Numbered from the stretch's first letter, positions 8,562 through 29,541 are shown. The stretch is 32,000 bases of DNA from Candidatus Saccharimonadota bacterium (GCA_965228485.1 OZ245819.1:1140001-1172000); one strand, 5' to 3'. Numbers and translations: made by a program. Notes: generated from the letters alone by a model not told the origin.

Positions 8562-8597
8562 AAAAAGTCCAAATGATTTGATTTTGGGCTTTTTTTG
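8562..8597 (+). terminator. orphan rho-independent-terminator-like hairpin in the divergent intergenic region
   Basis: AAGTCCAAA (8565-8573) pairs with TTTGGGCTT (8583-8591) with one G.U pair and a 9-nt loop. The stem is extendable by A/T pairs and is followed by a T7 run (8590-8596). It overlaps the TTG (8578) that the ORF track uses as the start. Confidence 0.35.
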
Positions 8598-8648
8598 TTG
8601 TGGGAGTGATAAAAGTTGTGAACAAAAAGTTTGCTTGAGGGTAAAATA

Positions 8649-8657
8649 TGATACAAT
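8649..8657 (+). promoter_or_regulatory. extended -10 promoter element TGaTACAAT for the Big_1/FN3 surface protein gene
   Basis: TGATACAATGGG at 8649-8660. The same TGnTACAATGGG string recurs at 10965-10976 upstream of the next gene. The first downstream ATG (8668) lies 10 nt past the -10, so the leader is very short or absent. Confidence 0.4.
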
Positions 8658-8667
8658 GGGATCTGAA

Positions 8668-11008: not shown

Positions 11009-14000
11009 ATGCGTTTACCCCGAAAAACAATAGCGGATTTGCGTCGTGCTGTAGCTGCTGTAGCAGTTTTTTCTATTTTTATACAGACCGCTCAGGCGGT
11101 GATAGTCAATCCAGATGATATTCCTCAGAAAGAGACGGGGGATGCCATTAGTGCAGGAGAATTCAACACGATGATTGATACTCTTCGGGGAGTAAAGAAA
11201 GATGATAATGATACGGCAGGACTCGGAGATGATAAAATAGGATTGTTTTTACCCGATGGGGTGAATCCTACCCAACAACTGCATGTAAATGGGACGGTGA
11301 AGGCCACTTATTTCATGGGAGATGGTTCGAATTTAACGAATCTTCCAGATGTTCACTGGGTGAAAAGTGGTAATGATGTGAATTACCCTACCGGTCGAGT
11401 CGGAGTAGGAATTGCCAGTCCAAACACGAAACTAGAAGTAAAAGATGGGGCTATCCGAGCAACCGCTAATAATTCGAACAACAACTACGTAGAAATGGCT
11501 CATAGTGGTTCAAATGCCTACTTAAACTTTGCTGGGACAGGGAACCTGGATTTTAGACGAAGTGGAGCGACCGAAATGACGCTAACGTCAGCAGGACGAC
11601 TTGGGATTGGAACTTCTAATCCGCAAGCAGTATTGCATGTAAATGGAGATTTAATTGCCGATAATATTATCCCCAGTGGAGGAGGTGGTCCAATTGCTGG
11701 GACTCAGTGGAATGATGTAACTGGAGGAATAGATTATTCCGCTGGGAATGTTGGAATTGGAGCTACAACTCCTTTGTCTAAATTACAGGTTAAAAATACT
11801 ACAGCTTATACTTTGGGAGAAGCAGATTTTCCTACTGATAGTATCGGGTTATATGGATCAGTTTCAGGTGTCAATGGAAGTTATTTTGGAGGTATTACCT
11901 GGCATAATGATGGTCGTCGTCGAGGGGGGATTGCTAGTGTTATGGAAAATGCAGATGCTGATCATGTGGGCTTAGCTTTTTTTACTCAGGGAGCAGATGG
12001 ACCAGGTCCAATGGCTGAATCAATGAGAATTTCTCACGATGGAAATGTTGGTATTAATACCACGACGCCTTCAGAAAGACTTCAGGTTGTAGGACAAGCA
12101 GAAATTCCAGAAGTGATTTTTGCTCAACATGCTAATGGAACGACGGATAAGAGCTCTATTGTAGGGGCTCCTGGGATAGTGCAGATTCACTCTGATGGCG
12201 CGATTGATTTTTACGAATCAGATGCAGGGGCTCAGAAATTTAGATTTAATGTAAATAATGGTCGATTAGGAGTGGGAACAAATAACCCTCAGAATGAAAT
12301 TCATGTTGTGGGGACGATTCGAGCTGACAACTTTGTAGATGATTTGGGTGATCCAATTGGGGATGGACTTTGGACTGAAAACGGGACTAATATTTATTAT
12401 CAAGCTGGACGAGTTGGGATTGGGTCTTCCAATGCCCCATCACACTCTCTAGACATCTTTAATGGTGGGGCAAGAGTTTCGAGTGATCTATACCAACAGG
12501 GTTCTAGTGGGAATGGGTTTATTATGCATTCTAGAGCTAGTTCAAGTTATGATTTTTGGCAATTATCGCCTATTAATGCTGGAACTAATGATTGGGCCAA
12601 AGGGATTACTCTTGTAAGAGCAGAGGGTAATGTTGGGATTAGTAATACTACTCCAGGACATCGATTAGATGTAGATGGAAATATTCGAAGTAGAATTGGT
12701 CGAATTATTTATTTTGGTACAGCGGATCAACGAATCTCTGGAGATAATGATTCAGCTTTTTATCAAAATAGTAACAACTCAACGGTTATTCAGACGATTT
12801 ATCGAGATAAAGAAAATACTGTTTATGGACGAGTTTATGGTTCTGGAAATGGTACAAACTTTGGTCTTCTGGATGGAGATGGAAACTGGGCTATCCAGAG
12901 TGTAAAAGATAATAATATTAATTTCCGAGTGAACAACACGGAAAGAATGAGAATTCAAAATAATGGGCGAGTAGGGATTGGAACAAACTCTCCAAATTCT
13001 AAATTAGAAGTGGTTGGAACGATTCGAGGAGGAGATGCCTCAGCGACTAGTGGTAGTTTAGGGTTTGGTATTAGATATACGGCTAATGATGTTCCGAATA
13101 CTTTTGGAGCGCATTACTCAACCGGAGCTACAGTACTCGGGTATGGAATAAGACCGAAAAGTGGTTCCTCAGGATATGTTTCTTCCGCAGGGAATGTTGC
13201 TTGGCCAAGAGGAGCTCTTACTATGACAGATGCTTTGGTATTTAGTAGTGCGGGGTCGTCTAGTGTAGCAGTAGGAAATGATGTAGCTTTAGCAGAACGG
13301 TTTAGAGTTCATACGAATGGTAATATAGGGATTGATCGAGCCGCTCCTTCTCATAAATTAGATGTAGATGGGAATATTCGAACTCGAGTTGGACGTTCTC
13401 TTTATTTTGGGACGACCAATAATCAGAGTATTTATGGGGATAATAGTTCTGCTTATTACATGGATAGTAATCATGATTCGGTGGTTCAACAAATTTTCCG
13501 AGATCGACAAAATACTACTTATGGACGAATTTATGGAGACGGAAATGGTGCAAACTTTGGTTTGATTGATGGAGATGGAGAGTGGGGAATTCGAATGGCG
13601 AAAGATACCGATATTCAGTTTCGAATAAACAATGATGAGAAAATGAGAATCACCTCTAGTGGAAGTGTAGGAATTGGAGATGATACTCCTGATGGAGGAA
13701 TGATGTTGGACGTAGAAGGGAAAATTGGAGCAATCGAATACTGTGATCAAAATGGTAATAATTGTTCGAGTTTTGGACGTTCAGGATTTACGGCGAGTGG
13801 AAGTAGTTCAACGGCGGATGATTGGTCTCGATTAGTGACGATTGACATGCCAGGAAGTAATTATCAGGATGGGACGATTATGTTAGCCATTGTTGGAGAA
13901 GAAATTAATGAGCCAGGAACGGCTATCGTAAGTATTGCTGTTCGACAGAGGACCAATCCAAGTATGACTATGTCAGCTGAAATTATGGAGATTCATAATG

Positions 14001-16312
14001 CTCCAATTGATATTGATGGGATAAAGTTAACTTCGAATGGTTTTGGAACGGATGTGCAGGTATGGATTAAAAGTAAGAAAAATTATCAAACCTTTGATGT
14101 ATATGAAATTGCTCGGAATACGGCCGAGTTAGGAGCGGTGACTTATGAACAGTCTTCTCCTTGGCAGGCTTCTGAGCCAAGTGGTTCGGCTTACAATGTT
14201 TATAGTCGGGGCTCTGTAGATAAATATACGCGTTATGTGAAATTTAGTGAAAATGATAATCAATTCATCTACGGAGATGGAGATTCAGCTTTTTATACTA
14301 ATAGTGCTCATAGTACCGTGGTTCAGAATATCTTTAGAGATAGAGAAAATACGGTTTATGGTCGAATTTACGGAGATGGGAATGGAGCGAATTTTGGCTT
14401 GCTAGATGGAGATGGAAATTGGGGAATTCTGATGGCAAAAGATAATCGATTTGAGTTTAGATTAAATGATGATGAGAAAATGAGAATTCTAAGTAGTAAT
14501 GGGAATGTCGGAATTAATAATACGACACCAGGTCATAAACTAGATGTAGACGGGAACATTCGAACCCGAGTTGGTCGTTCTGTGTATTTTGGAACGACAA
14601 ACAACCAAAATATCTACGGAGACAATAGTTCGGCTTTTTATACTCGGAGTAATCATAGTACCGTTGTGCAAAACATTTATCGAGATGCTCAGAATACAGT
14701 GTATGGACGAGTTTATGGTTCTGGAGATGGAGCAAATTTCGGTTTATTAGATGGAGATGGAGAATGGGCTGTTCAGAGTGTGAAGGATAACAATATTAAT
14801 TTCCGAGTGAATAACAGTGAAATTATGAGAGTTTCTAGTGGTGGAAATGTTGGGATTGGTACGACTTCTCCATCAGCCGCATTAGAAGTTTATGCAGATA
14901 GAGATATTACTGCTAATCCAGAAACAAAGGGTATTCGGTTAAGAGAAAGTGCAGGAGATTGGCTGTTTTCTTTAGGGGTTTCCGGAGTAACCAATACTGG
15001 GTTTAGTATTCGGGACAATGTTACAGATACCTATCCGCTTACCATTAGAGAGACTTCTAATAATGTGGGGATTAATAATACTGGACCAGGGCACAAACTT
15101 GATGTAGATGGGAATATTCGATCTCGAGTTGGTCGTTCTGTTTATTTCGGAACGACAAATAACCAAAACATCTATGGGGATAATAGTTCAGCTTACTACA
15201 TGGATAGTAATCATGATACGGTCATTCAACAGATATTCAGAGATCGACAAAATACTACTTATGGACGAATTTATGGAGATGGAAATGGTGCAAACTTTGG
15301 TTTGATTGATGGAGATGGAGATTGGGGAATCCAAATGCAAAAAGATAGTAATATTAATTTCCGAATTAATAATACCGAACGGATGCGTTTGAGTGGAAAT
15401 AGTGAGCTACATATCGGAAGTAATCACCTGAATGTGGCGAATTATAATTTCAATGGAACGCCAACTAATGGGATTAAGATTAGAACAAACCTTCCATATA
15501 CCAATGGTTCTCAAATGCCAACTGTGGTGATTGAGGGGTATAACTATGGTCAGGTAAAACCAATTGGTATTATACTCAACTGGTATATTTATGGAGGAAA
15601 TTTTTATAATTATCGAGCGTCTTCTTATGGAGGGTATGCGCCAACAATAAGACTAGCGAATGAAAGTGGTAAAGTCGTGATTTATATCGATGATCGTCAA
15701 TACTACAATCGATTTAATGTTCGAGTTTATGCTCAAGGAATGGGGGGAGTTGAGAGTGATGTGGCTAATTTTCAAAACTGGACGATTGTAGATCAAGCGT
15801 TAACAGGAGGAAATCAAGTCACGTTCTCATATGAAAACGAAATGGGGAACTTGAGACTTCGATCTGGGCGAGTATTGAGCTTTGGTACAGGAGACCAAAG
15901 GCTTTATGGAGATAATGGTTCAGCCCTTTATTATACATCTGAACACAGTTCAGTAACTCAACAAATCTTCCGAGATCAAGAAAATACGGTTTACGGACGA
16001 ATTTATGGAGACAGCAATGGGGCTAATTTTGGATTACTTGATGGAGATGGAAACTGGGGAATTCGAATGGAAAAAGATAATAATATTATGTTCCTCATTA
16101 ATAATAATGAACATATGCGACTTCGAAGTAATGGACGATTGGGGCTTGGGACGACAAATCCTTCTTCTCGACTAGAAGTGATTGGGGATATTGAGATTTC
16201 AGGAACGGTAAAGACTACTTCTGGAGAACTTAGATGTCCAGTTGATCGAGTAATGGTTGGTTTTGATACGAATGGAATCATTTGTGAGTTCCCACCACAG
16301 TTATACCAATAA
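11009..16312 (+). CDS. giant secreted tail-fibre-like repeat protein (1767 aa)
   Basis: Single uninterrupted ORF. Signal peptide ...AVAVFSIFIQTAQA/VIV. More than 15 copies of the tail-fibre-type motif G(N/R)VGIGTxxPxxKL(D/E/H)VxG. Six copies of a ~93-aa module. No C-terminal S74 chaperone domain; the protein ends ...CPVDRVMVGFDTNGIICEFPPQLYQ. Confidence 0.9.
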   Translation: MRLPRKTIADLRRAVAAVAVFSIFIQTAQAVIVNPDDIPQKETGDAISAGEFNTMIDTLRGVKKDDNDTAGLGDDKIGLFLPDGVNPTQQLHVNGTVKATYFMGDGSNLTNLPDVHWVKSGNDVNYPTGRVGVGIASPNTKLEVKDGAIRATANNSNNNYVEMAHSGSNAYLNFAGTGNLDFRRSGATEMTLTSAGRLGIGTSNPQAVLHVNGDLIADNIIPSGGGGPIAGTQWNDVTGGIDYSAGNVGIGATTPLSKLQVKNTTAYTLGEADFPTDSIGLYGSVSGVNGSYFGGITWHNDGRRRGGIASVMENADADHVGLAFFTQGADGPGPMAESMRISHDGNVGINTTTPSERLQVVGQAEIPEVIFAQHANGTTDKSSIVGAPGIVQIHSDGAIDFYESDAGAQKFRFNVNNGRLGVGTNNPQNEIHVVGTIRADNFVDDLGDPIGDGLWTENGTNIYYQAGRVGIGSSNAPSHSLDIFNGGARVSSDLYQQGSSGNGFIMHSRASSSYDFWQLSPINAGTNDWAKGITLVRAEGNVGISNTTPGHRLDVDGNIRSRIGRIIYFGTADQRISGDNDSAFYQNSNNSTVIQTIYRDKENTVYGRVYGSGNGTNFGLLDGDGNWAIQSVKDNNINFRVNNTERMRIQNNGRVGIGTNSPNSKLEVVGTIRGGDASATSGSLGFGIRYTANDVPNTFGAHYSTGATVLGYGIRPKSGSSGYVSSAGNVAWPRGALTMTDALVFSSAGSSSVAVGNDVALAERFRVHTNGNIGIDRAAPSHKLDVDGNIRTRVGRSLYFGTTNNQSIYGDNSSAYYMDSNHDSVVQQIFRDRQNTTYGRIYGDGNGANFGLIDGDGEWGIRMAKDTDIQFRINNDEKMRITSSGSVGIGDDTPDGGMMLDVEGKIGAIEYCDQNGNNCSSFGRSGFTASGSSSTADDWSRLVTIDMPGSNYQDGTIMLAIVGEEINEPGTAIVSIAVRQRTNPSMTMSAEIMEIHNAPIDIDGIKLTSNGFGTDVQVWIKSKKNYQTFDVYEIARNTAELGAVTYEQSSPWQASEPSGSAYNVYSRGSVDKYTRYVKFSENDNQFIYGDGDSAFYTNSAHSTVVQNIFRDRENTVYGRIYGDGNGANFGLLDGDGNWGILMAKDNRFEFRLNDDEKMRILSSNGNVGINNTTPGHKLDVDGNIRTRVGRSVYFGTTNNQNIYGDNSSAFYTRSNHSTVVQNIYRDAQNTVYGRVYGSGDGANFGLLDGDGEWAVQSVKDNNINFRVNNSEIMRVSSGGNVGIGTTSPSAALEVYADRDITANPETKGIRLRESAGDWLFSLGVSGVTNTGFSIRDNVTDTYPLTIRETSNNVGINNTGPGHKLDVDGNIRSRVGRSVYFGTTNNQNIYGDNSSAYYMDSNHDTVIQQIFRDRQNTTYGRIYGDGNGANFGLIDGDGDWGIQMQKDSNINFRINNTERMRLSGNSELHIGSNHLNVANYNFNGTPTNGIKIRTNLPYTNGSQMPTVVIEGYNYGQVKPIGIILNWYIYGGNFYNYRASSYGGYAPTIRLANESGKVVIYIDDRQYYNRFNVRVYAQGMGGVESDVANFQNWTIVDQALTGGNQVTFSYENEMGNLRLRSGRVLSFGTGDQRLYGDNGSALYYTSEHSSVTQQIFRDQENTVYGRIYGDSNGANFGLLDGDGNWGIRMEKDNNIMFLINNNEHMRLRSNGRLGLGTTNPSSRLEVIGDIEISGTVKTTSGELRCPVDRVMVGFDTNGIICEFPPQLYQ
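12710..16153 (+). repeat. six intragenic copies of a ~93-codon module inside the giant gene
   Basis: Modules lie at 12710-12985, 13403-13681, 14234-14521, 14585-14863, 15143-15421 and 15878-16153. Consensus: YFGTxxNQxIYGDNSSAFYxxSNHSTVxQxIxRDxxNTxYGRxYGxGxGANFGLxDGDGxWxxxxxKDxxIxFRxNNxExMRIxxxGxVGIGT. Modules 2 and 5 form one pair and modules 1 and 4 form another. Confidence 0.9.
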
Positions 16313-16453: not shown

Positions 16454-16643
16454 GACTCTGGACAAGCCAGAGATTTACAAAGGAATAAGACTAAAATTCT
16501 CGCTTGCTGAGAATCTAAATAGGCTGAATAGGAATTATCGGACTCTGGACAAGCCAGAGATTTACAAAGAAATAAGACCAAAATTCTCGCTTGCCGAGAA
16601 TCTGATCTTTCTACATTTAGTGATAAGGCTCTGGACAAGCTGG
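16454..16643. repeat. tandem 63-bp structured repeat (2 full copies plus a partial third) with non-homologous 24-nt spacers
   Basis: Copy 1 is 16454-16516 and copy 2 is 16541-16603, with 3 mismatches in 63. The partial copy GCTCTGGACAAGC lies at 16628-16640. Period is 86-87 bp. Each full copy holds two hairpins: CTCTGG-ACAAG-CCAGAG and ATTCTC(G)-CTTGC-(C/T)GAGAAT. Confidence 0.85.
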
Positions 16644-18602: not shown

Positions 18603-18604
18603 AT

Positions 18605-18633
18605 AAAAAAAATCCCAACACGTGGGATTTTTT
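18605..18633. terminator. bidirectional rho-independent terminator between convergent murA and the acidic-protein gene
   Basis: AAAAAAAATCCCA-acacg-TGGGATTTTTT. A-run on one flank and T-run on the other. Begins 3 nt after the murA TAG. Confidence 0.65.
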
Positions 18634-18661
18634 ATGCTTTAAGGGGGGCTAATTAAGGGGC

Positions 18662-19186
18662 TTATCGAGTTCTTCGATACATTCGGTATGGCATAAGCCG
18701 GAATGTAATGTCTTCACGACAGGTGAGCGGTGCTCCTTGGCTTAGTTTTACTCTTGTGAAACGATTCATAAGTGTTTGGCTTTCCTCGGTATCACATGGA
18801 AGATATTTGCTTCGAGTTTTAGCAGAACTAAATGATAGAAATGTCATTCCTTTCGCTTGAACCGCTCCTGGAACACGATCATAGAGAGCGATTGATTTTT
18901 TATTAATTTCATCTACTCCACCAACCTCCTTGGTTTCTTTTTCAGTATCTTCTTCTGTAGTTTCGTTTTCTTCTCCCGTTGACTCTTCCTCAGAAGATTC
19001 TGATTCCTCGCTAAACTCTTCTCCAAAATCATCACCAAACAAATCACCAAATTCATCACCTAGTCCAAAATCATCTCCGGTTCCTTCTTCTGTGGGAGTA
19101 AGAATTTCATCAGCAGCAAAGCTTGTTGCTGGGGTGATAGCAAAACTCATCAATAGGACGAGGGCCGTTACAGTTGTTGTTTTCAT
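18662..19186 (-). CDS. secreted protein with a strongly acidic low-complexity N-terminal half and a basic C-terminal domain
   Basis: 174 aa. Signal peptide MKTTTVTALVLLMSFAITPATSFA/AD. Then a DDFGLGDEFGDLFGDDFGEEFSEESESSEEE... region. The C-terminal ~80 aa carry 2 Cys. It has its own near-consensus promoter. Confidence 0.7.
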   Translation of the reverse strand: MKTTTVTALVLLMSFAITPATSFAADEILTPTEEGTGDDFGLGDEFGDLFGDDFGEEFSEESESSEEESTGEENETTEEDTEKETKEVGGVDEINKKSIALYDRVPGAVQAKGMTFLSFSSAKTRSKYLPCDTEESQTLMNRFTRVKLSQGAPLTCREDITFRLMPYRMYRRTR

Positions 19187-19226
19187 GATTTATATTTTAT
19201 GTGGTATTTTTTTAAATTTATATATA

Positions 19227-19255
19227 ACTATAACACTTTATTTTTAAAAAGTCAA
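19227..19255 (-). promoter_or_regulatory. near-consensus sigma70 promoter (TTGACT-N17-TATAGT) for the acidic secreted protein gene
   Basis: On the minus strand, TTGACT (complement of 19250-19255), a 17-nt spacer, then TATAGT (complement of 19227-19232). The -10 ends 40 nt upstream of the ATG at 19186. Confidence 0.6.
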
Positions 19256-19302
19256 ATACTTAAAAAACCTTTTATATAAATCTATAAAATCTTTTTTTTT
19301 AC

Positions 19303-19554
19303 TTAGGAATCGATTTTTTTAAATAACTCTCCAATTCTGATGGGAGTCATTTTTGAAAGTAGTGTTTCGCTTTTTTCTGTACAATATGCGACTATTGGAC
19401 CATTTTCGCATTGTCCCTGGCAAGGACAGTTCTCAATAGTGACATTCTCAAGTTGTCGTTGAGATTTTTCTTTTTCGGCTCTTTCTTGAGAAAGTGAGGA
19501 AAAATTGTTTTTACAAGATTTCCCCTCACAGAATTTTAGTCTAATTTTAACCAT
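19303..19554 (-). CDS. thioredoxin-like [2Fe-2S] ferredoxin-type small protein
   Basis: 83 aa with Cys9-x4-Cys14-x30-Cys45-x3-Cys49 and the CQGQCENGP block. This resembles the Cx4C...CxGxCxxxP pattern of NuoE/thioredoxin-like ferredoxins. Its start overlaps the upstream stop (TAATG). Confidence 0.5.
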   Translation of the reverse strand: MVKIRLKFCEGKSCKNNFSSLSQERAEKEKSQRQLENVTIENCPCQGQCENGPIVAYCTEKSETLLSKMTPIRIGELFKKIDS

Positions 19555-21482
19555 TAGAGGTTGAATTCGTAGATCTTATTTTTTGTTAGTAGGCTTACAG
19601 TTTGTCCGCCTTCGTCAACGATGAAATCTCGTGCATCATCAATTCCATATAAGATTTGTCTTTTGTAAGTTGCAAATCGATCTCCTTTAACAAACACTAA
19701 TAATCGTTCGTTGTCTGGGTCAAGAACGTAGATGTAATCTAGTTCTGCGGTTGTGTAGAGTTTTACATTCGGCCCTGTAATTGGAGTTGAGGGAAGGTCT
19801 CGGAAGTCATAGTCTTGGGAAACTCCTCGGAAGATTTTTTGGATTTCTCCACTAGCAGATACCACGTATATAGCCCCATCGATAGCGAAGCTTACCGATT
19901 CTGCTAGATTTGCCCCTTGGTTATAAGCGGTGCTAGCAGAGTAGTTAGAACGACGTCGTTCATATTTCCAGATTTGGTTTTCTGCTGGATCAAGAATATA
20001 GGTATACCGTCCGTAGGTCTGAACATCAATTCCTTTTTTCCAGTTTTCATCCTGTGTTTGCATTGGAGTAATGATACCCTCTTTATATTCAATTACTCTT
20101 GGGTTATCAGTGATGAATGTGAGTGTTTTTTGATCTGGTCGGGAAGCAGCGGCTAGAATACTCCCGCCAGATTCGTTAACATTAATTGGAGCTTCTACGA
20201 TATTACGTACAGATTTGATGACTTGTTTACTGTCATAAGCAAATAAACTTCCATCTAAATTTAATAATCCTGTAGCATCGATTGTATCACTTTTCACTCC
20301 AAGATCAGCTAATAGATTTGGGGTTACTTGTCGTGCATTTTCTACTTGTAATTGTTTAGCCTTGATATCAGCTAGAAGAAATTGTGCATCAGATCGGTAG
20401 AGTTTTGATTTTGATTTAAACACTTCTTGTACGGCTGAGTTAGCTCTTTCAAGAGAATCTTTAGCTTCTGTTTTATCCCCTTGGACGAGATAAGTATCGG
20501 CTTGCTGGATAGCCTCACGAGCAATATCGAGCTCTTCTCTTAGCCGTATTTCTTCTTCTGATTCCCAATTGATAGATTTAATTCCTAGACCTACAAAGAA
20601 AAGTGTTAGTACTACGCTGGCAAGAATAAGTAGGTTTTTCTGAGGTCGAAAATTTTTAATGGCACTCACGGTTTCTGGTTTTATGAATTGTGTTTTGCTT
20701 TTTGTGATTTTTACCTCTGGGATTTCTTCGTGTTCTGCTGATGGTTCTTCGGGTATTGGTTCTGTTTCAGAACTTGGTTTAACTACTTCTTTAGCCGCTG
20801 AAACTACTTTTTCAGCTGGAGAATTTGTCATTACTTTTGAAAGGAATCCTGCAGCAGGCATTCCCCCTTCTTTTTTCCCAATCCCAATAATGGTTACGAG
20901 TAGGTCTTCATTAGATTTTTGAGATAACTCGTGTTTGAAGCTGTTAGTAGATTCTCGGTAGCTTGGTTTTGCGAAGATATCACTCAGTTCATTTGCGGTA
21001 AGGGTTCGGAGAATCCGATTTGAACTCAAAATGACAACGTCATCGATGTTTACTTGTCCGCTAAGGATGTTGAGAAACAGGTCATCGCTTTCTTCTGGGA
21101 TTTCAGTGATCTGGCTTACTCCACCATCTCGGATAAGGTAGGCTTCAGACTCCCCTGATTGAGTAAGGTAGAGGTGATGAAAATCAAAAAGAGCCACCAC
21201 GATCTCAGGAGTTTTAGAAGTCTGAGAAGCGTCTTTTCGAAACGCTTGATTCGCTTTTTTAAGGGCTTCCTCAAAGTGGTCGTAGTGATCTTTCGCAGAA
21301 GGTTTACTTAAATGATCAACGATGGCGCCAAAAAGTGATTCAGCGATATTTTGTGCTTCGGTCGTTCCGAGAGCGAATTTTGCGAGGAAATAAACTTCCT
21401 GTCCTTCACCAATATTTTGATGATAAGCAAAGCCTAGATTTCCTTCTGGATTGGTCTCAAATGTATGTACAGAAAAAGCCAT
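19554..21482 (-). CDS. membrane protein: degenerate PP2C/SpoIIE-like cytoplasmic N-domain, one TM helix, coiled coil, C-terminal repeat (beta-propeller-like) ectodomain
   Basis: 642-aa ORF. The N-terminal block HHLYLTQSGESEAYLIRDGGVSQIT...DDVVILSSN resembles the PP2C core but lacks obvious metal-binding Asp pairs. TM segment LLILASVVLTLFFVGLGI near aa 295-312. The domain call is tentative. Confidence 0.75.
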   Translation of the reverse strand: MAFSVHTFETNPEGNLGFAYHQNIGEGQEVYFLAKFALGTTEAQNIAESLFGAIVDHLSKPSAKDHYDHFEEALKKANQAFRKDASQTSKTPEIVVALFDFHHLYLTQSGESEAYLIRDGGVSQITEIPEESDDLFLNILSGQVNIDDVVILSSNRILRTLTANELSDIFAKPSYRESTNSFKHELSQKSNEDLLVTIIGIGKKEGGMPAAGFLSKVMTNSPAEKVVSAAKEVVKPSSETEPIPEEPSAEHEEIPEVKITKSKTQFIKPETVSAIKNFRPQKNLLILASVVLTLFFVGLGIKSINWESEEEIRLREELDIAREAIQQADTYLVQGDKTEAKDSLERANSAVQEVFKSKSKLYRSDAQFLLADIKAKQLQVENARQVTPNLLADLGVKSDTIDATGLLNLDGSLFAYDSKQVIKSVRNIVEAPINVNESGGSILAAASRPDQKTLTFITDNPRVIEYKEGIITPMQTQDENWKKGIDVQTYGRYTYILDPAENQIWKYERRRSNYSASTAYNQGANLAESVSFAIDGAIYVVSASGEIQKIFRGVSQDYDFRDLPSTPITGPNVKLYTTAELDYIYVLDPDNERLLVFVKGDRFATYKRQILYGIDDARDFIVDEGGQTVSLLTKNKIYEFNL

Positions 21483-23209: not shown

Positions 23210-23761
23210 ATGATAGATAATTCCCAGGCAAAGGTTCTGATGCAACAAGCGAAACAAGGTGATGAAGCGGCGTTTGCTCTTTTATACGAAAATTTTTATA
23301 CTCCAATATTTCGATATATTTATTCGAAAGTTGGACAGAGAGAGATGGCTGAAGATATGGCACAAACCGTTTTTATGAAAGCTTTTCAGTCAAGAGAGTC
23401 TTTTTCTGTTGGACCAACACCGATTGCTTACTTTTTTACTATTGCTCGTAACTTAGTGATTGATCACTATCGAAAAAAAAGTGAGGTTTTAATCGATAAC
23501 CAAGAGGATGGGCAGGATATGTTTAGTCAGATACCTGATGAAGAAATGAATCCCCATGATCGTTTTCTTGATAGTGAGAAGATTGGTTTTATTCAGAACC
23601 TTATTCACAAACTTAAACCAGAATATAAGGAGGTGATTGAAATGAAATTTTTACAACAACTTTCTAATAAAGAAATTGCTGAAGCCACAGGGAAAAGCGA
23701 ACAAAATATTCGTCAAATCCAAGTTCGGGCTTTGAGAAAACTTAAAGAACTTTTAACCTAA
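23210..23761 (+). CDS. ECF-type RNA polymerase sigma factor (sigma-70 family, group 4)
   Basis: 183 aa. Region 2 is GDEAAFALLYENFYTPIFRYIY...AEDMAQTVFMKAF and IARNLVIDHYRKK. Region 4 is YKEVIEMKFLQQLSNKEIAEATGKSEQNIRQIQVRALRKLKELL. Confidence 0.9.
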   Translation: MIDNSQAKVLMQQAKQGDEAAFALLYENFYTPIFRYIYSKVGQREMAEDMAQTVFMKAFQSRESFSVGPTPIAYFFTIARNLVIDHYRKKSEVLIDNQEDGQDMFSQIPDEEMNPHDRFLDSEKIGFIQNLIHKLKPEYKEVIEMKFLQQLSNKEIAEATGKSEQNIRQIQVRALRKLKELLT

Positions 23762-23770
23762 CTACATTTT

Positions 23771-24424
23771 ATGGCGTTAACAGACCAACAAATTGAATTA
23801 CTTTTAACCGAGCTAGAAACGGGAACTCCGTTGTCGGAGATACAGTCACGCTTTCCTGAGGAGGCAGAAGAGATAGCTCTTATTGCTGAAGTTAAATGTT
23901 TTATGGAAGCTCAGGCATTGGAGGTGAGTCCTGATAAGGCTGGGCTGAAATCAGCGTTAAACCAAGCCATTATTTGGGATGACGAGGAAGTAAGTCATGG
24001 TTGGGGAACTTGGATGCGCCAGTGGCGCTGGATAGCGCCTCTGAGCTTGTCTTTTGCACTTTTATTATTTGTCTTTGATCCTTGGGCTATTAGCCCTCCT
24101 AAGGTGGTGCTTACCACGCAAGAATCTGTTGCGGAGCCTTCAGCAAGAATGATGAGAGGGGCTCATGTAGAAATGGAGTTTGTGGAGGATGATATGGCTG
24201 AAGGAATGGTTCTTCAGGCGATGGATACTCCAATGGCGACGATGGCTTCTGATGAAGTTTCTTCAGAGATAACGGTGACAGATCCTATGGACGTACTTGT
24301 TAAGGAGCTTAGTCAGGAATTTGACAGCGAGTTAGTAGAATATCAAAACCTAAAAGAGGATTTGAAAACTTATTATAATGAAGAAATTTTCAGTTTATAT
24401 CCTCAATATCAATTAGTCTTTTAA
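23771..24424 (+). CDS. putative single-pass anti-sigma factor
   Basis: The call is positional: it starts 9 nt after the sigma gene stop. About 85 aa of cytoplasmic helical N-domain, one TM helix (WRWIAPLSLSFALLLFVFDPWAI), and an acidic extracytoplasmic tail. No zf-HC2 motif is present. Confidence 0.5.
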   Translation: MALTDQQIELLLTELETGTPLSEIQSRFPEEAEEIALIAEVKCFMEAQALEVSPDKAGLKSALNQAIIWDDEEVSHGWGTWMRQWRWIAPLSLSFALLLFVFDPWAISPPKVVLTTQESVAEPSARMMRGAHVEMEFVEDDMAEGMVLQAMDTPMATMASDEVSSEITVTDPMDVLVKELSQEFDSELVEYQNLKEDLKTYYNEEIFSLYPQYQLVF

Positions 24425-24850
24425 ATGAAAAAATTAATTCTCATATTCGGTGTTTTACTTTTCTGGGGAGGCTCAGTACAGGCTCAGTTTGAAAAAAAAG
24501 TTAATGACAAGATCCAGCAGTTGGAAGTATTATCTGGTCAGGTGGAAGAATCTTCTATGTTTGAAATTGATAAGGCTTGGGCTCAAGATCAAATCAGTGT
24601 TAATATCAAAAAATTGGCTGACTCGGTTACCGAGAGTGATATAGAAAAACTTCGTTCATTAGAAGCGAGTATAAATATTATCAATGCTGATATTGTAGAT
24701 TTATTGGTTGAAGCTCAGAAAAATCGATTATTAGAAAAAATAAAAGAACTTGATCAGCTTATTCTCGACTATGCGGCTCAAGGGATGAATACAGAAAAAT
24801 TGGAAATGCTGCAGATGTCGATGCTTGAACGGTTAGCTATGATTGACTAG
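24425..24850 (+). CDS. small secreted helical/coiled-coil protein
   Basis: 141 aa. The start abuts the upstream stop (TAAATG). Signal peptide MKKLILIFGVLLFWGGSVQA/QF. The remainder has heptad-like helical sequence. Confidence 0.6.
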   Translation: MKKLILIFGVLLFWGGSVQAQFEKKVNDKIQQLEVLSGQVEESSMFEIDKAWAQDQISVNIKKLADSVTESDIEKLRSLEASINIINADIVDLLVEAQKNRLLEKIKELDQLILDYAAQGMNTEKLEMLQMSMLERLAMID

Positions 24851-24887
24851 TTTTGCGTTTTGTCTTTGATGTCTTAAGATTGGTGGT

Positions 24888-26027
24888 ATGAGAATTATAT
24901 CTTTACTGTTTCTGGTTATATTTTTAGTGGCTTGTAATCCACAAAAACCAAAAACTTGCACATCAGGGTTTGAATGGAACCTTGCGACAAAAAAATGTGA
25001 ATTATCGTCGGATGATTTTTTCTTTGAATCGATAAAGAATGAGGATGAATATCATATTCTTGATTATCCGTTGGTAGGGGAGTCTTTTTCACGCAAATAT
25101 CCAGCTCTTGGAGATTATTTGGAGGCGAGGATCAAAACCTATGTTGATGAATTTATGGCTCAAGTGGAAGACTGGAAACAAGAATCACTGTCTGATACAG
25201 AGGTTGAATTTGGTATGCCCTGGAATATGGGGCTCGAAATTGTTGAACTAGAGGAGCAATCAGAGGTTTTCAGTCTTATGCTTCAAGTGTATCAATATAC
25301 GGGAGGGGCTCATGGAAATGTGTTTTATGAAGGTATTAATTACGACGTTTTACAAAATAAGATTATTACCCTAGATGAAATTTTTGTTTCGGATGAATAT
25401 TTGGTTTCACTTACAGACTTTGTGAAGTCCGATATTATTCGGCAAAAGACAGAGCGATATCCAGAAACAGATTTCTCTGATGATTTTTTTGTGACAGAAG
25501 GGGCTACTCCAGAACCTGAAAATTATGTTGATTTTTTGTTTAAGGCTGATGGTCTAGAATTTTATTTTGCTCCTTATCACATGGGGCCTTATGCAGAAGG
25601 TTCGTTCCAGGTTCTTGTTCCGTGGTCAGTCCTTAATCCTTTTTTAGCGGCTCAATATCAAGGAGAAGAAGCAATACTGAATCCCGTCAATTTTGAAGTG
25701 TTTCGTTTGCCAGCACCTTCTGGTGATGTGGTGGTTCTGAATGATTTTATCCAATCTCCAAGTATTCAGCCGAAGCGGGTTTTGGAAGGGAAAGTGCCTT
25801 CGTCTTGGGTACAGAATGATCAGGTGTCAGTAGCTTTATTAGATTTAAAGGGAAAGGAATTGTGGCAGGGGTATGGTAAGGTAGTTCCAAATCAGGAATT
25901 CTCTGGTTCAATGATGAGTTTTAAAGTGGTGTTTGATTTTAACTCTTTATCTCTTGAAGAAGGTGTTTTGAGGATTGTTTCTCAAAATGATAAGAACTTG
26001 TTTGTAGATTTATTGGTGAGCTTTTAA
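24888..26027 (+). CDS. lipoprotein with a DUF3298 (RsiV/PdaC-type) domain and a C-terminal Gmad2-like Ig domain
   Basis: Lipobox FLVAC at Cys16. The hallmark DUF3298 block is QVYQYTGGAHGN, followed by ...FYFAPYHMGPYAEG. The C-terminal ~90 aa (LEGKVPSSWVQNDQVSVALLDLKGKEL...) resemble the Gmad2 Ig-like fold; that part is less certain. Confidence 0.75.
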   Translation: MRIISLLFLVIFLVACNPQKPKTCTSGFEWNLATKKCELSSDDFFFESIKNEDEYHILDYPLVGESFSRKYPALGDYLEARIKTYVDEFMAQVEDWKQESLSDTEVEFGMPWNMGLEIVELEEQSEVFSLMLQVYQYTGGAHGNVFYEGINYDVLQNKIITLDEIFVSDEYLVSLTDFVKSDIIRQKTERYPETDFSDDFFVTEGATPEPENYVDFLFKADGLEFYFAPYHMGPYAEGSFQVLVPWSVLNPFLAAQYQGEEAILNPVNFEVFRLPAPSGDVVVLNDFIQSPSIQPKRVLEGKVPSSWVQNDQVSVALLDLKGKELWQGYGKVVPNQEFSGSMMSFKVVFDFNSLSLEEGVLRIVSQNDKNLFVDLLVSF

Positions 26028-26116: not shown

Positions 26117-26144
26117 TTGTTCGGGAGTATTTTTGCCTTAAAAT
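26117..26144 (+). promoter_or_regulatory. candidate promoter TTGTTC-N16-TAAAAT for the second fibre gene
   Basis: TTGTTC at 26117-26122 and TAAAAT at 26139-26144. The -10 overlaps the ATG at 26143, which would make the ATG at 26158 (MDKNKFRSSLPFF...) the real start. Confidence 0.3.
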
Positions 26145-29100
26145 GGAGCCTTGTAGAATGGATAAAAATAAATTTCGCTCCTCGTTGCCGTTTTTTTCTC
26201 TTGTTTTAGGAAGTTGTGTGTTCTTCGCGTCACCGGCTTTTGCCATTACGTGGCAGTATGCAACTGATGCAGAATTACAATCAGGACAACCCATTAAAGC
26301 TATACACGTAAAAGAAGTCCGAGATAAAATGGTCTGGGATTTGAATGGTGTTAGAACGTTTTATAATGGTGGTAATGTTGGGATTGGGGTTGCGTCTCCA
26401 AATCACAAGTTAGATATTAGTGGTGGAAATGTTCAGATTCGTGGAACGAGTGCGGGTCCAATTGCCGATACCTTCGGGGGGAATACTCAGCAGTCTTATA
26501 TTCATTTTCCTGCAGTTTCAGGATCGAATGATCCAGGATATATTATGCATGAAACTCGTGGAGCAGAAAATAATGAAGGAGTCCTTCATCTAGCGCCTTC
26601 AGATGATAATGTCTATGGGGATTATGTTTCTATTCATGGGACGAATGATCCAGATAGAATTAAACTTCACACTGATGGGACGGTAGAAGGGGTGACGAAT
26701 TTTACGGCCACAGGAACGGCTCGAATTAGTGGAAGCGTAGGGATTGGAACGACAAGCCCGAATGAAAAATTAGATGTTATCGGTAATATTGAACTTACCG
26801 GACGAATTGATACGGAGATTCCGGTTAATGGTGTGGCCTGGAGTTTTGAAGGTGGTGAATTTATCCGAAAAATGACCGATCGAGGAGGAGTAAGAATTGG
26901 TAAAGATGATTCTCTTGTGATTGGGGATGGAGAGGCTCCTGATACGATTTCCAATAATGTAAATATGTTATCTGAAAATACCTATGTTGGTTCTGATAAT
27001 AATGTTTATATTTACACAGATTTGCAGAATGGATGGGGGTATAGAAAAGCTTTTACTTTTAGAGATAATGGACGTTTTGGAATTGGAACGACCAACCCAG
27101 GACAAACCCTGGATGTTGTGGGAACGACTCAGACTGATTATCTGATTCTTAATCCTCAAGATGGAAGTAGTGAAGGAGGAGAGCTTCGATTAGATGGAGC
27201 TGGTAGTAACACGACTTGGTCTATGGATAATTATGCTGGGAGAATTCGTTTTTATCATGATGGTTCAGAGCGATTAACGATCAGAAATAATGGTCGTGTT
27301 GGGATTGGTACAGCGAGTCCTGGCGCGCCTCTGCACGTTGCGGGGAATATTATTGCGAGTAATCCAACAGCCAGTAATCATGTAGCGACTAAATCCTATG
27401 TAGACTCTCAAGGAGGATCAGACAATCTAGGAGATCATATTGGACGACGGAATCTAGTGTTCAACGATTATGGAAAAGGAGTCGTAGGGACTTATAGCTC
27501 GGTTCGTTACCAGAATTTATTCTCAATGGGAACAGCCTATGTTCCCGCGACGAATGGAACCGCTCTAAACAACATGTATGGGATTGCGTGGACGCATTCG
27601 AATGTTGGGGGAGAGTCAGTTCCAGGGTTGGGACACCAAGCGTTATTTGTAGCGGCGGGAGATACTCGGAGTGCTATTGGGACTGGAGTTTGGACAAAAT
27701 ATGATATAACCGGAAATCGATTTATGGATCAAAACAATACCGGGTACTACCTTGATCCACACTCGGTTTCTTATCTAAATGATATTCGACCAAATATTAT
27801 TTACGATCGGCAAAATACCGGATATTACGTGGATCCAAATGGAACGACAAATCTTAACAACCTTTACGTTCAGGGGAATGAACTGGGGGTTAATGGAGAA
27901 GCGAATTTCTGTGGTTCAGCGGGATGTACTCATTTTGCTTATGATAATGGGGGGCCGAATAATTATATTCGTGGGACGCTTTATCATAATGCTCGAATGT
28001 ATGATGAGAATAATACAGCTTATTCATTAGATATGGATAATGTGTCGTACTTTAATGATATTCGACCGAATGTTATCTATGATCGACAAAATACGGGATA
28101 TTATGTTGATCCAAATGGTTCTACGAATCTTGCGAATCTTCGAAGTACGGGGAATTATGTGATGAATAATGGTTCTCCAACTATCTATCTTCAGGATAGT
28201 GATCATCGGTCAGGGATAATTCATATGAATAGTAATCTGATGTATTTCCTTCGAGGGAGTGGAAATAATAGTACGAATTGGGCAACTTATAATGGGATGT
28301 GGCCGTTGTATTTGAACATGACAAATAATCAGGCTATATTTGGTGGAAGTATTGGAGTTCGTGCAACTCCAGGAGGGTCTTTCCATAATCACGCAGCGAT
28401 TGCCCTAGGGGATAGTGATACCGGAATTCGTCAGGATGGTGATGGTCAGTTAGAACTTTGGACGAACAATGTAGAAAGAATGCATATCCGAAATGATGGG
28501 GCGACTGGAATCGGGGTTGGAAATCCAACGGCTCGTCTTCAGGTTCATAAAGGGGTTACCTATAACGGTAATGCACTTCCCGATTGGGGTGATCGATCGA
28601 CTATTGGAGTAACGGGGACTTATCCAGCGTTGGTGGTAGGTTCTAGTGTGAACAATTGGAATCATGCAGGAGCTATTTCTCTTTGGCATCGTGTAAATGG
28701 TTCTGGTAACACTCGAAACTGGAATATCGGGGCGGCTCAAAATGGTCTAACCATTGGGACGTGTGTGAATAATGGAAATCCTCACTGTGGGCTTGAAAAT
28801 TATTCAGCTGCTTCAATCTTGAGTTTGGAGAATAATGGTAATGTCGGGGTAGGAACAATTGGGCCCGCTCGTAAGTTCCATGTTTATGGACCAAATTACG
28901 TACGATTCCAATCCCCTCATGGGTATGTAGATATTGGGCCAGGGAATGGTTCGTATACGCACTTCTATACAGATCGAGGACAGTATTACTTCAATAAAAG
29001 AATTATGGTTGATGAAGGAGTAATTGGAGCTTACAACGATCATCTTTATCTGAGAACTGGAGGAAATACTCGAATCTTTGCCAATAAAGATAATGGACGA

Positions 29101-29484
29101 GTGGGAGTTGGAAAAACAAACCCAGGTGAGCGATTAGATATTAATGGTTCTGCAAAAGCTGATGCCTTCCTCTATAATTCTGATAGACGACTGAAAAAAG
29201 ATATTCAAACTATTAGTGGTCTTGATATTATTGAACGACTTAGAGGAGTAACTTTCACCTGGAAATCTGATGATTCTAAATCGGTTGGTTTGATTGCCCA
29301 AGAGGTGGAAACAGTTCTGCCTGAAGCGGTAAGAACCAGCGATCAGGATGGATTCAAAACGGTGGATTACGCCAAACTTGTCGCACCACTCATCGAAGCC
29401 GTTAAAGAGCAAAAAGCGCAAATTGAAGCCCAACAAGCTCAGATTAATAATCTGACAAGACAGGTTTCTGAATTACAAAACTAA
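26143..29484 (+). CDS. secreted tail-fibre-like protein with a C-terminal S74 intramolecular-chaperone autoprotease domain (1113 aa; alternative start 26158)
   Basis: Signal peptide ...FFSLVLGSCVFFASPAFA/ITW. Repeated GxVGIGTxxPxxxLDVxG motifs. The tail-fibre-type block NHVATKSYVD. The C-terminus NSDRRLKKDIQTISGLDIIERLRGVTFTWKSDDSKSVGLIAQEVETVLPEAV...VDYAKLVAPLIEAVKEQ plus a coiled coil matches the endosialidase/tail-spike chaperone domain. Confidence 0.9.
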   Translation: MEPCRMDKNKFRSSLPFFSLVLGSCVFFASPAFAITWQYATDAELQSGQPIKAIHVKEVRDKMVWDLNGVRTFYNGGNVGIGVASPNHKLDISGGNVQIRGTSAGPIADTFGGNTQQSYIHFPAVSGSNDPGYIMHETRGAENNEGVLHLAPSDDNVYGDYVSIHGTNDPDRIKLHTDGTVEGVTNFTATGTARISGSVGIGTTSPNEKLDVIGNIELTGRIDTEIPVNGVAWSFEGGEFIRKMTDRGGVRIGKDDSLVIGDGEAPDTISNNVNMLSENTYVGSDNNVYIYTDLQNGWGYRKAFTFRDNGRFGIGTTNPGQTLDVVGTTQTDYLILNPQDGSSEGGELRLDGAGSNTTWSMDNYAGRIRFYHDGSERLTIRNNGRVGIGTASPGAPLHVAGNIIASNPTASNHVATKSYVDSQGGSDNLGDHIGRRNLVFNDYGKGVVGTYSSVRYQNLFSMGTAYVPATNGTALNNMYGIAWTHSNVGGESVPGLGHQALFVAAGDTRSAIGTGVWTKYDITGNRFMDQNNTGYYLDPHSVSYLNDIRPNIIYDRQNTGYYVDPNGTTNLNNLYVQGNELGVNGEANFCGSAGCTHFAYDNGGPNNYIRGTLYHNARMYDENNTAYSLDMDNVSYFNDIRPNVIYDRQNTGYYVDPNGSTNLANLRSTGNYVMNNGSPTIYLQDSDHRSGIIHMNSNLMYFLRGSGNNSTNWATYNGMWPLYLNMTNNQAIFGGSIGVRATPGGSFHNHAAIALGDSDTGIRQDGDGQLELWTNNVERMHIRNDGATGIGVGNPTARLQVHKGVTYNGNALPDWGDRSTIGVTGTYPALVVGSSVNNWNHAGAISLWHRVNGSGNTRNWNIGAAQNGLTIGTCVNNGNPHCGLENYSAASILSLENNGNVGVGTIGPARKFHVYGPNYVRFQSPHGYVDIGPGNGSYTHFYTDRGQYYFNKRIMVDEGVIGAYNDHLYLRTGGNTRIFANKDNGRVGVGKTNPGERLDINGSAKADAFLYNSDRRLKKDIQTISGLDIIERLRGVTFTWKSDDSKSVGLIAQEVETVLPEAVRTSDQDGFKTVDYAKLVAPLIEAVKEQKAQIEAQQAQINNLTRQVSELQN
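27733..28140 (+). repeat. two copies of a 44-codon unit spaced exactly 92 codons apart inside the second fibre gene
   Basis: 27733-27864 encodes NNTGYYLDPHSVSYLNDIRPNIIYDRQNTGYYVDPNGTTNLNNL. 28009-28140 encodes NNTAYSLDMDNVSYFNDIRPNVIYDRQNTGYYVDPNGSTNLANL. Confidence 0.85.
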
Positions 29485-29508
29485 TTACCAGTTTTTTCCC
29501 TTCTATAG

Positions 29509-29541
29509 AACTCCGCTCAATGTTTTGGGCGGAGTTTTTTT
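29509..29541 (+). terminator. rho-independent terminator of the second fibre gene
   Basis: AACTCCGC (29509-29516) pairs with GCGGAGTT (29529-29536). The stem is extendable through CAA/TTG with one mismatch and is followed by a T7 run. Confidence 0.8.

Follow-up and report, generated by a model that had tools for sequence, protein, structure and literature searches.

A probable Sec-exported fibre with a C-terminal S74 autoprotease domain, apparently of a small-genome Patescibacteria bacterium

Phage tail fibres that end in a peptidase S74 domain fold in the cytoplasm; could the same domain, placed at the end of a protein that seems to be exported, fold and process a fibre outside a bacterial cell? 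The question is raised by an open reading frame (ORF) of 1113 aa, counted from its first ATG, at 26143..29484 on the + strand of a 32 kb stretch deposited under Candidatus Saccharimonadota bacterium (GCA_965228485.1 OZ245819.1:1140001-1172000); the whole stretch is called the window below. According to the initial annotation, the protein carries an intact S74 dyad and a cleavable signal peptide and has no phage neighbours, in which case folding and self-cleavage would have to follow export, a setting presented there as different from that of phages. We consider it probable that the ORF encodes a cellular, Sec-exported surface fibre of a small-genome bacterium from the candidate phyla radiation (CPR; Patescibacteria), which resembles the mosaic adhesive trimer (MAT) fibres of Bdellovibrio, is trimeric, processes itself outside the cytoplasm and possibly serves for attachment to a host.

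The C-terminal domain was analysed at the levels of profile, alignment and predicted structure. Pfam returned a single significant family in the fibre, PF13884 (Peptidase_S74, 'chaperone of endosialidase'), with 64.7 bits (score cutoff, 22 bits) and an E of 9.6e-18. The match covers the entire profile (residues 1013–1064 correspond to positions 1–58 of 58) and its first position is Ser1013 (nt 29179). Together with AlphaFold2 and Foldseek it delimits a predicted intramolecular-chaperone/autoprotease domain of residues 1013–1113 (29179..29481, +). The local sequence reads ...SAKADAFLYN, then SDRRLKKDIQTISGLD, and S1013-D-R-R-L-K1018 has the Ser/Lys+5 spacing of the S74 dyad. The predicted autocleavage site, Asn1012/Ser1013 (29176–29181, +), was positioned from the Pfam profile register and an alignment of homologues, the dyad residue Lys1018 (29194–29196, +) from the SDxxxK register and the same alignment. 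In this alignment, which consists of the C-terminal fragment of the fibre and 30 homologous fragments, Ser1013, Asp1014, Lys1018, Gly1049, Ala1052 and Pro1060 are invariant across the 31 sequences; S[DS]xxxK is also found at the equivalent distance from the C-terminus in 94 of 122 full-length homologues. The assignment of the last ~100 aa to the S74 family, the identity of the dyad and the predicted mature C-terminus ...AFLYN, all proposed in the initial annotation, were borne out by these searches.

Known structures point the same way. In a phmmer search of the PDB, SDRRLKKDI pairs with SDRRIKKDI in the distal subunit of a phage long tail fibre (6F45, E 3.7e-9) and with the intramolecular chaperone auto-processing (ICA) domain of MyRF (7DC3, E 3.9e-5); the deposited MyRF chain reads AD-x-x-x-K, with Ala at the position of the catalytic Ser. 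The 31-sequence alignment also served as input for an AlphaFold2 model of the C-terminal fragment, in which the predicted local distance difference test score (pLDDT) exceeds 90 over residues ~1010–1113 and a long helix (H138–173 of the modelled fragment) occupies residues ~1077–1112 (29371–29478, +). The stem before the domain was built as a monomer and has a pLDDT of ~50. Searched against the PDB with Foldseek, the modelled domain gave only two significant matches: 7DC3 (E 7e-7, probability 1.00) and 3GW6, the chaperone of K1F endosialidase (probability 1.00). As far as sequence and predicted structure reach, the S74 domain, its dyad and its register are established, and by analogy with characterized members of the S74 family (PMC10769870 and its references) self-cleavage would be expected between Asn1012 and Ser1013.

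At the other end of the protein, the choice of start codon has little bearing on export. A public protein (P0001, 1108 aa) that is 100% identical to the fibre is called from Met6 (ATG 26158), and a GGAG lies 8 nt upstream of this ATG; a start at ATG 26143 adds five residues (MEPCR) to the public gene call. ATG 26158 is the probable true start, and the signal peptide is the same with either codon. This predicted signal peptide, Met6–Ala34 (26158..26244, +), was judged by a hydropathy and motif script. It comprises an n-region (MDKNKFRSS), an h-region (LPFFSLVLGSCVFFASP) and a c-region (AFA), with a predicted cut before Ile35. Residues 15–34 are the sole hydrophobic segment of the fibre, with K8, K10 and R12 before them and P31 and A32-F-A34 ahead of I35. 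The signal peptides of two homologues are collinear with AFA/ITWQ of the fibre, namely those of P0004 (...SSVSYA/TWQG...) and of a 353-aa protein of contig L001 (...ITFAEA/SWQG...). The latter also gives an N-terminal BLASTP segment over residues 17–87 of the fibre (E 2e-4). The N-terminus thus looks like a type I Sec signal peptide, and the export signal of the initial annotation can be retained as probable on these heuristic grounds.

Directly behind the predicted cut lies a short element (residues 35–75, ITWQYATDAELQSGQPIKAIHVKEVRDKMVW...; 26245..26367, +) that is collinear with the N-termini of the L001 353-aa fibre and P0004 and contains G-x-x-I-x-[AS]-x-x-h-[NK]-x-x-h-D-x-[LM] as a motif. 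It recurs behind the signal peptides of the L001 protein, of P0004 and of a second, 1767-aa fibre encoded at 11009 in the window. In an exhaustive HMMER search with residues 35–230, the first ~28 mature residues were almost never matched. Anchoring or trimer initiation may be inferred as the role of this ~40-residue element.

A fibre may also be exported and remain in the membrane. Cells of the Gracilibacteria/Peregrinibacteria type, to which the host seems to be related (see below), are thought to have a wall and an S-layer and no outer membrane, and a membrane tether would solve the problem of anchoring a fibre to such a cell. The signal region contains a lipobox-like VLGSC (Cys25) which fits a PROSITE-type pattern and is an alternative to the AFA site. 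If the N-terminus were a lipoprotein signal (VLGS-C25) or an uncleaved signal-anchor, the S74 fibre would be tethered to the cytoplasmic membrane, with its shaft projecting through wall and S-layer. The adjacent gene at 24888 has a lipobox of its own (FLVAC), so the organism probably makes lipoproteins, and the N-terminal segments of two homologues, P0005 and P0087, are more transmembrane-anchor-like. However, hydrophobicity persists for nine residues beyond Cys25 (VFFASPAFA), an uncommon arrangement behind a Cys that is lipidated; P31 with A32-x-A34 makes up a textbook signal peptidase I site; and the aligned homologues have A-x-A-type sites, no Cys there and a conserved W-Q just past the site. 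Since hydrophobicity goes on past Cys25, the lipobox reading of this residue is the less likely one, and we regard membrane tethering in either form as unlikely, albeit worth keeping in mind, in comparison with a cleaved type I signal peptide.

What is exported appears to be a mosaic. The modular shaft and tip (residues 76–1012; 26368..29178, +), defined by a motif script and the DNA repeat families D2/D3, contain at least seven copies of a capping-loop motif ([VFT]G[IV]G-x-x-x-P-x-x-x-[LF]), located around residues 79, 199, 311, 386, 790, 901 and 987. These fit the consensus V-G-G/N-pi-x-x-P-x-x-x-L described for MAT fibres and found also in MyRF (PMC10769870), and through them the fibre matches the crystal structure of Bdellovibrio Bd2133 (8OND; phmmer, E 2.2e-6). 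A capping loop, GRVGVGKTNPGERLDING, precedes the cleavage site, as it does in MyRF and MAT. Residues ~118–185 (26494..26697, +) form a widespread fibre module, SYIHFPAVSGSNDPGYIMHE...GDYVSIHGTNDPDRIKLHTDGTVEG (SYIHFPAVSGSNDPGYIMHE...GDYVSIHGTND), which was found by HMMER and is beta-rich in the model. The search with residues 35–230 returned 19,827 cluster representatives at E<1e-3, with matches at query positions ~30–190 that sit internally in fibres of up to 7,453 aa. A separate homologue search with these residues returned only short metagenomic fragments, and no Bdellovibrio protein occurs among its named matches. The same module is present in the homologues P0012, P0013, P0019, P0057 and P0059. 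In an AlphaFold2 model of residues 35–230 the pLDDT is 67 overall and 70–82 for the strands of this module, and the model has no significant fold match in the PDB or BFVD. The region behind the signal peptide is mostly a reusable fibre module by sequence, and not a big dedicated N-terminal domain.

Farther along, residues ~426–520 (27418..27702, +) constitute a mid-fibre module, SDNLGDH...YQNLFSMG...YGIAWTHSNVGGES...GVWTKY, which is 65% identical (E 8e-76) to the YGIAWTHSN module of the L001 protein and recurs in P0003, P0006, P0009, P0029/P0041, P0030 and P0037. A repeat search (D1/D6) revealed an internal duplication of 131 nt, the copies of which (27766–27896 and 28042–28172, +) are 73% identical and encode VSY[LF]NDIRPN[IV]IYDRQNTGYYVDPNG[TS]TNL. 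A template/variable-repeat pair of a diversity-generating retroelement was considered for this repeat and rejected, as the mismatches have no adenine bias and a reverse transcriptase is absent. A further module reads ...ALGDSDTGIRQDGDGQLELWTNN.... PHROGs tail-fibre families match residues ~490–1113, many of them the C-terminal ~450 residues, with E down to 1.6e-31. Neither the mid-fibre region (420–700) nor the tip (701–1012) has a significant sequence match in the PDB. Judged by sequence, the fibre is a mosaic of modules common to phage fibres and to other exported CPR fibres.

The window contains a second gene of this kind, 10 kb upstream of the S74 fibre; it goes unmentioned in the initial annotation, as do the probable CPR host and the annotated start at Met6. 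The 1767-aa fibre (11009..16312, +), identified by DNA repeats, BLASTP and phmmer, has a signal peptide (...FIQTAQA/V) followed by GDAISAGEFNTMIDTL with the short N-terminal motif of the S74 fibre. It displays GNVGIGTxxP capping-loop repeats, six internal repeats of ~278 nt and the DNA repeat families D3/D5 in common with the S74 fibre, to which it is related over several modules (BLASTP, E ~2e-9). It also matches Bdellovibrio MAT structures (phmmer: 8OJN/8ONB/8ONC, E 6.8e-5; 8OND, E 7.6e-5). No PF13884 match was found in it with Pfam, which makes it an 'NS74'-type paralogue, i.e. one lacking S74. The two MAT-like fibres, one with and one without S74, account for 8.6 kb of the 32-kb window. 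Directly upstream of the 1767-aa fibre, a 786-aa protein (8578–10938, +; the TTG start is uncertain) combines Big_1/invasin-D3 and fibronectin-III domains and is probably another surface or adhesion protein.

The closest described system is that of Bdellovibrio bacteriovorus, for which Caulton et al. 2024 reported 21 MAT fibres, all with a signal peptide followed by a beta-rich and conserved ~130-aa domain (PMC10769870). Thirteen of them end in S74 with SDxxxK and the other eight in other adhesive tips; Bd3182 self-cleaves at Ser782, the S782A substitution blocks cleavage, and members were localised on the predator surface (PMC10769870). Cleavage was proposed to occur late, inside the prey (PMC10769870). 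Among such fibres only the MATs have been examined experimentally, and these act in cell-cell adhesion with specificity for glycans (PMC10769870). The fibre analysed here shares with the S74 subgroup (e.g. Bd3182) a signal peptide, a capping-loop fibre of ~1000 aa, a C-terminal S74 with SDxxxK and a cellular gene; as in Bdellovibrio, S74 and non-S74 paralogues coexist in one genome, and there are direct sequence matches to MAT crystal structures. Four MAT hallmarks are present: a signal peptide (by heuristics), capping loops, an S74 end and a non-S74 paralogue. On the other hand, the fibre comes from a probable member of the CPR/Patescibacteria instead of a Gram-negative predator, its shaft and tip are built of other modules, and the ~130-aa N-terminal domain was not detected in a comparison that included no Bdellovibrio N-terminus; in its place stands the ~40-residue element common to CPR fibres, followed by generic modules. 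From its sequence the fibre is best called MAT-like, probably working as an S74 MAT does, and not a proven member of the MAT family.

This comparison also settles what is new. The suggestion that an S74 domain on an exported fibre represents a novel biological setting does not hold: the Bdellovibrio fibres, published in 2024, combine signal peptide, S74 and self-cleavage (PMC10769870), and about 35 of 122 homologues of the present fibre look exported. Neither the mechanism of S74 nor its use by bacteria on exported fibres is new; what the window adds is an example in another lineage. Full-text literature searches yielded no relevant paper that combines S74 fibres with Patescibacteria; S74 fibres in this group, the S74/non-S74 pair and the mini-fibres with a shared N-terminal element (see below) appear to be undescribed.

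By analogy with these systems the following course of events can be proposed. The chain would pass unfolded through Sec and, going by sequence features only, lose its signal peptide after Ala34. The C-terminus would leave SecYEG last, whereupon three S74 domains (1013–1113) would join via their C-terminal helices, as expected from the family. The S74 trimer would then nucleate a trimeric beta-helical shaft, with the VGIG-x-x-P-x-x-x-L loops capping its edges, again by family analogy. In a correctly formed trimer Ser1013, activated by Lys1018, would cut Asn1012-Ser1013, which would free a chaperone fragment of ~11 kDa and expose the tip ...AFLYN. Because the C-terminus emerges last and the intramolecular chaperone is ATP-independent, this topology would suit folding outside the cytoplasm; given the probable signal peptide and the non-phage neighbourhood described below, the proposal of the initial annotation that folding and self-cleavage follow export gains support. 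The mature fibre of ~980 residues, on or near the cell, may bind a ligand on a surface, for which a glycan of another cell is the most plausible choice; that other cell might serve an episymbiotic CPR bacterium as host or prey. The fibre might be retained on the producing cell by the short N-terminal element, by a tether (a lipid or a transmembrane segment) or by binding to other structures of the surface. The Patescibacteria in cultivation live as episymbionts, and large surface proteins have been proposed as their host-binding factors (PMC13059738).

Need recognition of a host or prey be the function of an exported S74 fibre? It could instead be a structural fibre associated with the envelope or S-layer, an adhesin for surfaces in general or for biofilms, or a molecule that acts as decoy or competitor with regard to phage receptors. 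No solved structure is related to the tip, so no ligand can be deduced; exported S74 fibres occur also in apparently free-living Bacteroidota-like organisms (P0029, P0041); and the fibre gene is accessory. Set against this are the glycan-specific cell-cell adhesion of Bdellovibrio MATs (PMC10769870), the episymbiotic life of cultivated Patescibacteria with their proposed host-binding surface proteins (PMC13059738), and the strain-level variability and modular mosaicism that would be expected of a specificity determinant. We judge a role other than recognition to be rather improbable, and return to a fibre that recognizes another cell.

Which organism makes the fibre was approached through MurA (17100–18602, +). 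Its named relatives all belong to Candidatus Gracilibacteria or Peregrinibacteria (57–69% identity), other relatives reach 76–77%, and loci around MurA relatives encode S-layer homology (SLH)-domain proteins. We hold with moderate confidence that the host is a small-genome Patescibacteria bacterium in or near the Gracilibacteria/Peregrinibacteria. MurA itself has 500 aa, with an N-terminal extension of ~80 residues that bears a helix-turn-helix signature; this length is common to many relatives (57–77% identity), whereas others, including most named Gracilibacteria/Peregrinibacteria, have 423–430 aa. The genetic code was examined as well. Eighteen large ORFs of the window end in TAA (15) or TAG (3) and none in TGA, a triplet that is common out of frame. 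Reassignment of TGA was rejected: in the closest relative (L002), 3 of 20 genes stop at TGA and the triplet never occurs in frame. The standard code applies, and the absence of TGA stops from the window is probably due to chance.

The surroundings of the fibre gene are chromosomal in type. Pfam and NCBIfam identified YfiH-like, GST/glutaredoxin-2-like, PBP1A, MurA, LemA and DUF3137 proteins and an extracytoplasmic function (ECF) sigma factor in the window; downstream of the fibre come an SF1 helicase and a partial ORF at the window end, which has no Pfam match and, read by eye from the translation, resembles the C-terminal fragment of a class I aldolase. Among the window ORFs other than the fibre, Pfam and NCBIfam revealed no phage family, only cellular or unknown proteins, and NCBIfam has no model naming the fibre. 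PHROGs matched none of the eight scanned window ORFs apart from the fibre itself. No tRNA or Rfam family was found in the 32 kb, and no extracellular contractile injection system (eCIS) or integrase feature, the window extending 26 kb upstream and 2.5 kb downstream of the fibre. Tail, baseplate, head, lysis and integration genes are likewise absent around the fibre within the 32 kb, which is not the picture of a prophage tail module, and the absence of phage neighbours noted in the initial annotation is upheld by all of these scans. In GC content, GC content at third codon positions and codon usage, the fibre gene resembles the rest of the window. A consensus scan detected an intrinsic-terminator-like hairpin (14-bp stem with 6 GC pairs, followed by a T-run; 29507..29538, +) 23 nt past the stop codon, so the fibre gene appears to close a transcription unit.

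Upstream of the fibre (23210–26027, +), the gene for the ECF sigma factor is followed by those for a putative anti-sigma factor, a secreted protein of 141 aa and, lastly, a lipoprotein. The last of these, at 24888, has the classical lipobox mentioned above and an RsiV-like PdaC+DUF3298 ectodomain, the combination of domains present in RsiV, an anti-sigma factor that senses lysozyme; its NCBIfam match to RsiV is weak and under the cutoff. A search for an ECF-type promoter common to the upstream regions of the sigma gene and of the fibre was negative, and a sigma-70 scan performed no better than shuffles. In L002 the block MurA...LemA-DUF3137-ECF sigma-anti-sigma-141-aa protein, with its sigma-factor part at 17628–19728, is syntenic with the window and is followed by DUF155 and an SLH protein in place of the RsiV-like lipoprotein and the fibre. 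Since the fibre is missing from this syntenic locus, it is an accessory gene in a variable slot and not an obligatory member of the sigma-factor operon.

Homologues of the fibre are numerous. A full-length search gave 2,707 matches, nearly all with PF13884 and most covering 7–40% of the query. Among the 122 top homologues, the ~35 with a signal-peptide-like N-terminus were recognized by a crude test; the rest open with fibre repeats and look phage-like. In tblastn 488 phage records match, none of which covers more than 38% of the fibre and all of which are below 60% identity. Four homologues (P0004, P0011, P0073 and the L001 protein) were inspected in context, and all lie among cellular genes. 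The N-terminus most like that of the fibre belongs to P0004 (1583 aa, signal peptide and S74; L004 2102–12752, GCA_015489565.1, WFZM01000025.1), which is located directly downstream of genes for PilB-like (MshEN/T2SSE) and PilC-like (T2SSF) proteins and three small unknown ORFs. This position may point to a connection between such fibres and loci for type IV pili, and offers a hint, though only that, of retention via other surface structures. The neighbours of P0011 (L005 8001–10901) are MurA, L25, ProRS and SAICAR synthase. The stored P0011 protein has W where G is expected (e.g. KWGNIWIGNPNP, LRWVDF) and does not result from translation with table 11. Its gene looks like one of the Gracilibacteria/Absconditabacteria in which UGA means Gly (code 25), stored in a translation with UGA as Trp. 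P0073, labelled 'Patescibacteria group bacterium', is cut at its N-terminus by the contig start and adjoins a Gly-rich/fibrinogen-C surface protein.

The fourth case, on L001 (labelled 'uncultured Candidatus Saccharibacteria'), was the only relative returned by a profile search of genome contigs. Here a 353-aa mini-fibre (4188–5249) is encoded next to EF-Tu. Besides a signal peptide and the N-terminal motif it has a single mid-fibre module, YYxxP repeats and an S74 domain that is 48% identical to that of the fibre (E 3e-36). Shaft length in the family thus varies at least four-fold between conserved ends. Two further contigs that show signs of a Patescibacteria origin, one by its label and the other by apparent recoding, seem to encode exported relatives.

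S74 domains are also found in several systems other than MATs. In phage S74 fibres (K1F endosialidase, 3GW6; T5 pb1, 4UW8; S16 gp37, 6F45) the domain, with the same Ser/Lys+5 dyad, likewise stands at the extreme C-terminus, behind a trimeric beta-helical stem that is putative in the present fibre, and many shaft modules are held in common; those fibres have no signal peptide and are attached to the virion by an N-terminal adaptor after folding in the cytoplasm, whereas the present one bears a signal peptide, with no genes for virions in its neighbourhood. MYRF, the best structural match of the modelled domain (7DC3) and likewise equipped with a capping loop before its cleavage site, is a precedent for S74 at work in a membrane-associated, non-viral protein, but it is a transcription factor of the ER membrane, cleavage of which frees the N-terminal DNA-binding part, with neither fibre shaft nor Sec export. 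The tail fibres of eCIS with an S74 fold (PMC12923769) are bacterial, non-phage fibres for binding target cells; they are encoded in eCIS clusters and assembled in the cytoplasm, in contrast to a signal-peptide-bearing fibre in a window devoid of eCIS genes. Trimeric autotransporter adhesins are functional analogues only: like the fibre as proposed here, they are long, exported, modular homotrimers with a C-terminal domain that drives trimerisation, but no kinship in sequence or fold was found, and they keep their C-terminal beta-barrel as an anchor in the outer membrane, whereas the C-terminal domain is here predicted to be cut off.

Very unlikely, in light of these comparisons, is a fibre of a phage, prophage remnant, tailocin or eCIS that is assembled in the cytoplasm and whose N-terminal hydrophobic stretch is incidental: such an origin could account for the many PHROGs tail-fibre families and 488 phage records matched by the C-terminal part, for the ~70% of top homologues that lack a signal peptide and look phage-like, for the existence of eCIS fibres with S74 (PMC12923769) and for an absence from the syntenic locus of the closest relative as expected of mobile DNA, but it is difficult to reconcile with the lack of any phage, eCIS, integrase or tRNA feature over 26 kb upstream and 2.5 kb downstream, the limited coverage (<=38%) and identity (<60%) of the phage records, the native codon usage and GC content, the presence of all three signal-peptide regions in register with those of cellular homologues, and the housekeeping or surface-protein genes that surround the four inspected homologues.

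The interpretation of the fibre as a cellular, Sec-exported and self-processing one has weak points of its own, which keep our confidence in it moderate. Its export is a prediction, and trimerisation, cleavage and binding are deduced from sequence, a structural model and analogy. The VLGSC lipobox or an uncleaved signal-anchor would each replace the cleaved type I signal, with the low probability given above. The ~130-aa N-terminal domain of MATs was not demonstrated, residues 35–230 being mostly a generic module with a pLDDT of 67 and no fold match, and the lack of a solved relative of the tip precludes conclusions about the ligand. The Gracilibacteria/Peregrinibacteria-type assignment leans on one housekeeping protein, MurA, and the closest relative genome has no fibre at the locus, hence the accessory status of the gene.

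A broader possibility, about which we are doubtful, is that CPR episymbionts carry their own repertoires of phage-derived receptor-binding fibres, with and without S74, which are exported via Sec, assemble themselves outside without an ATP-dependent chaperone and act as host-range determinants, their modules being swapped with phages and between strains. If so, an ultrasmall bacterium would evolve its host specificity in the fashion of a phage, and the variable locus, the two fibres in 32 kb, the L001 mini-fibre and the pilus-adjacent homologue would be parts of one system. Host recognition by ultrasmall CPR bacteria is largely unknown, the current candidates being type IV pili and assorted giant surface proteins. 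Should fibres of this kind be host-binding adhesins, they would provide specificity determinants readable from sequence for organisms that are mostly not culturable, and would carry the MAT idea, in which tail fibres of the phage type serve a cell, over to another lifestyle, unrelated to the first, and to an envelope that lacks an outer membrane.

Two other features of the window deserve mention. Near its start, two adjacent genes (832–3099, − and 3105–5534, −) encode proteins of 755 and 809 aa that have signal-peptide-like N-termini and match nothing in the Pfam, PHROGs and NCBIfam libraries. In the 787-nt gap that separates murA from the 1767-aa fibre gene lies a pair of 63-nt copies without an Rfam match (16454–16516 and 16541–16603), which are 95% identical and spaced 87 nt apart.

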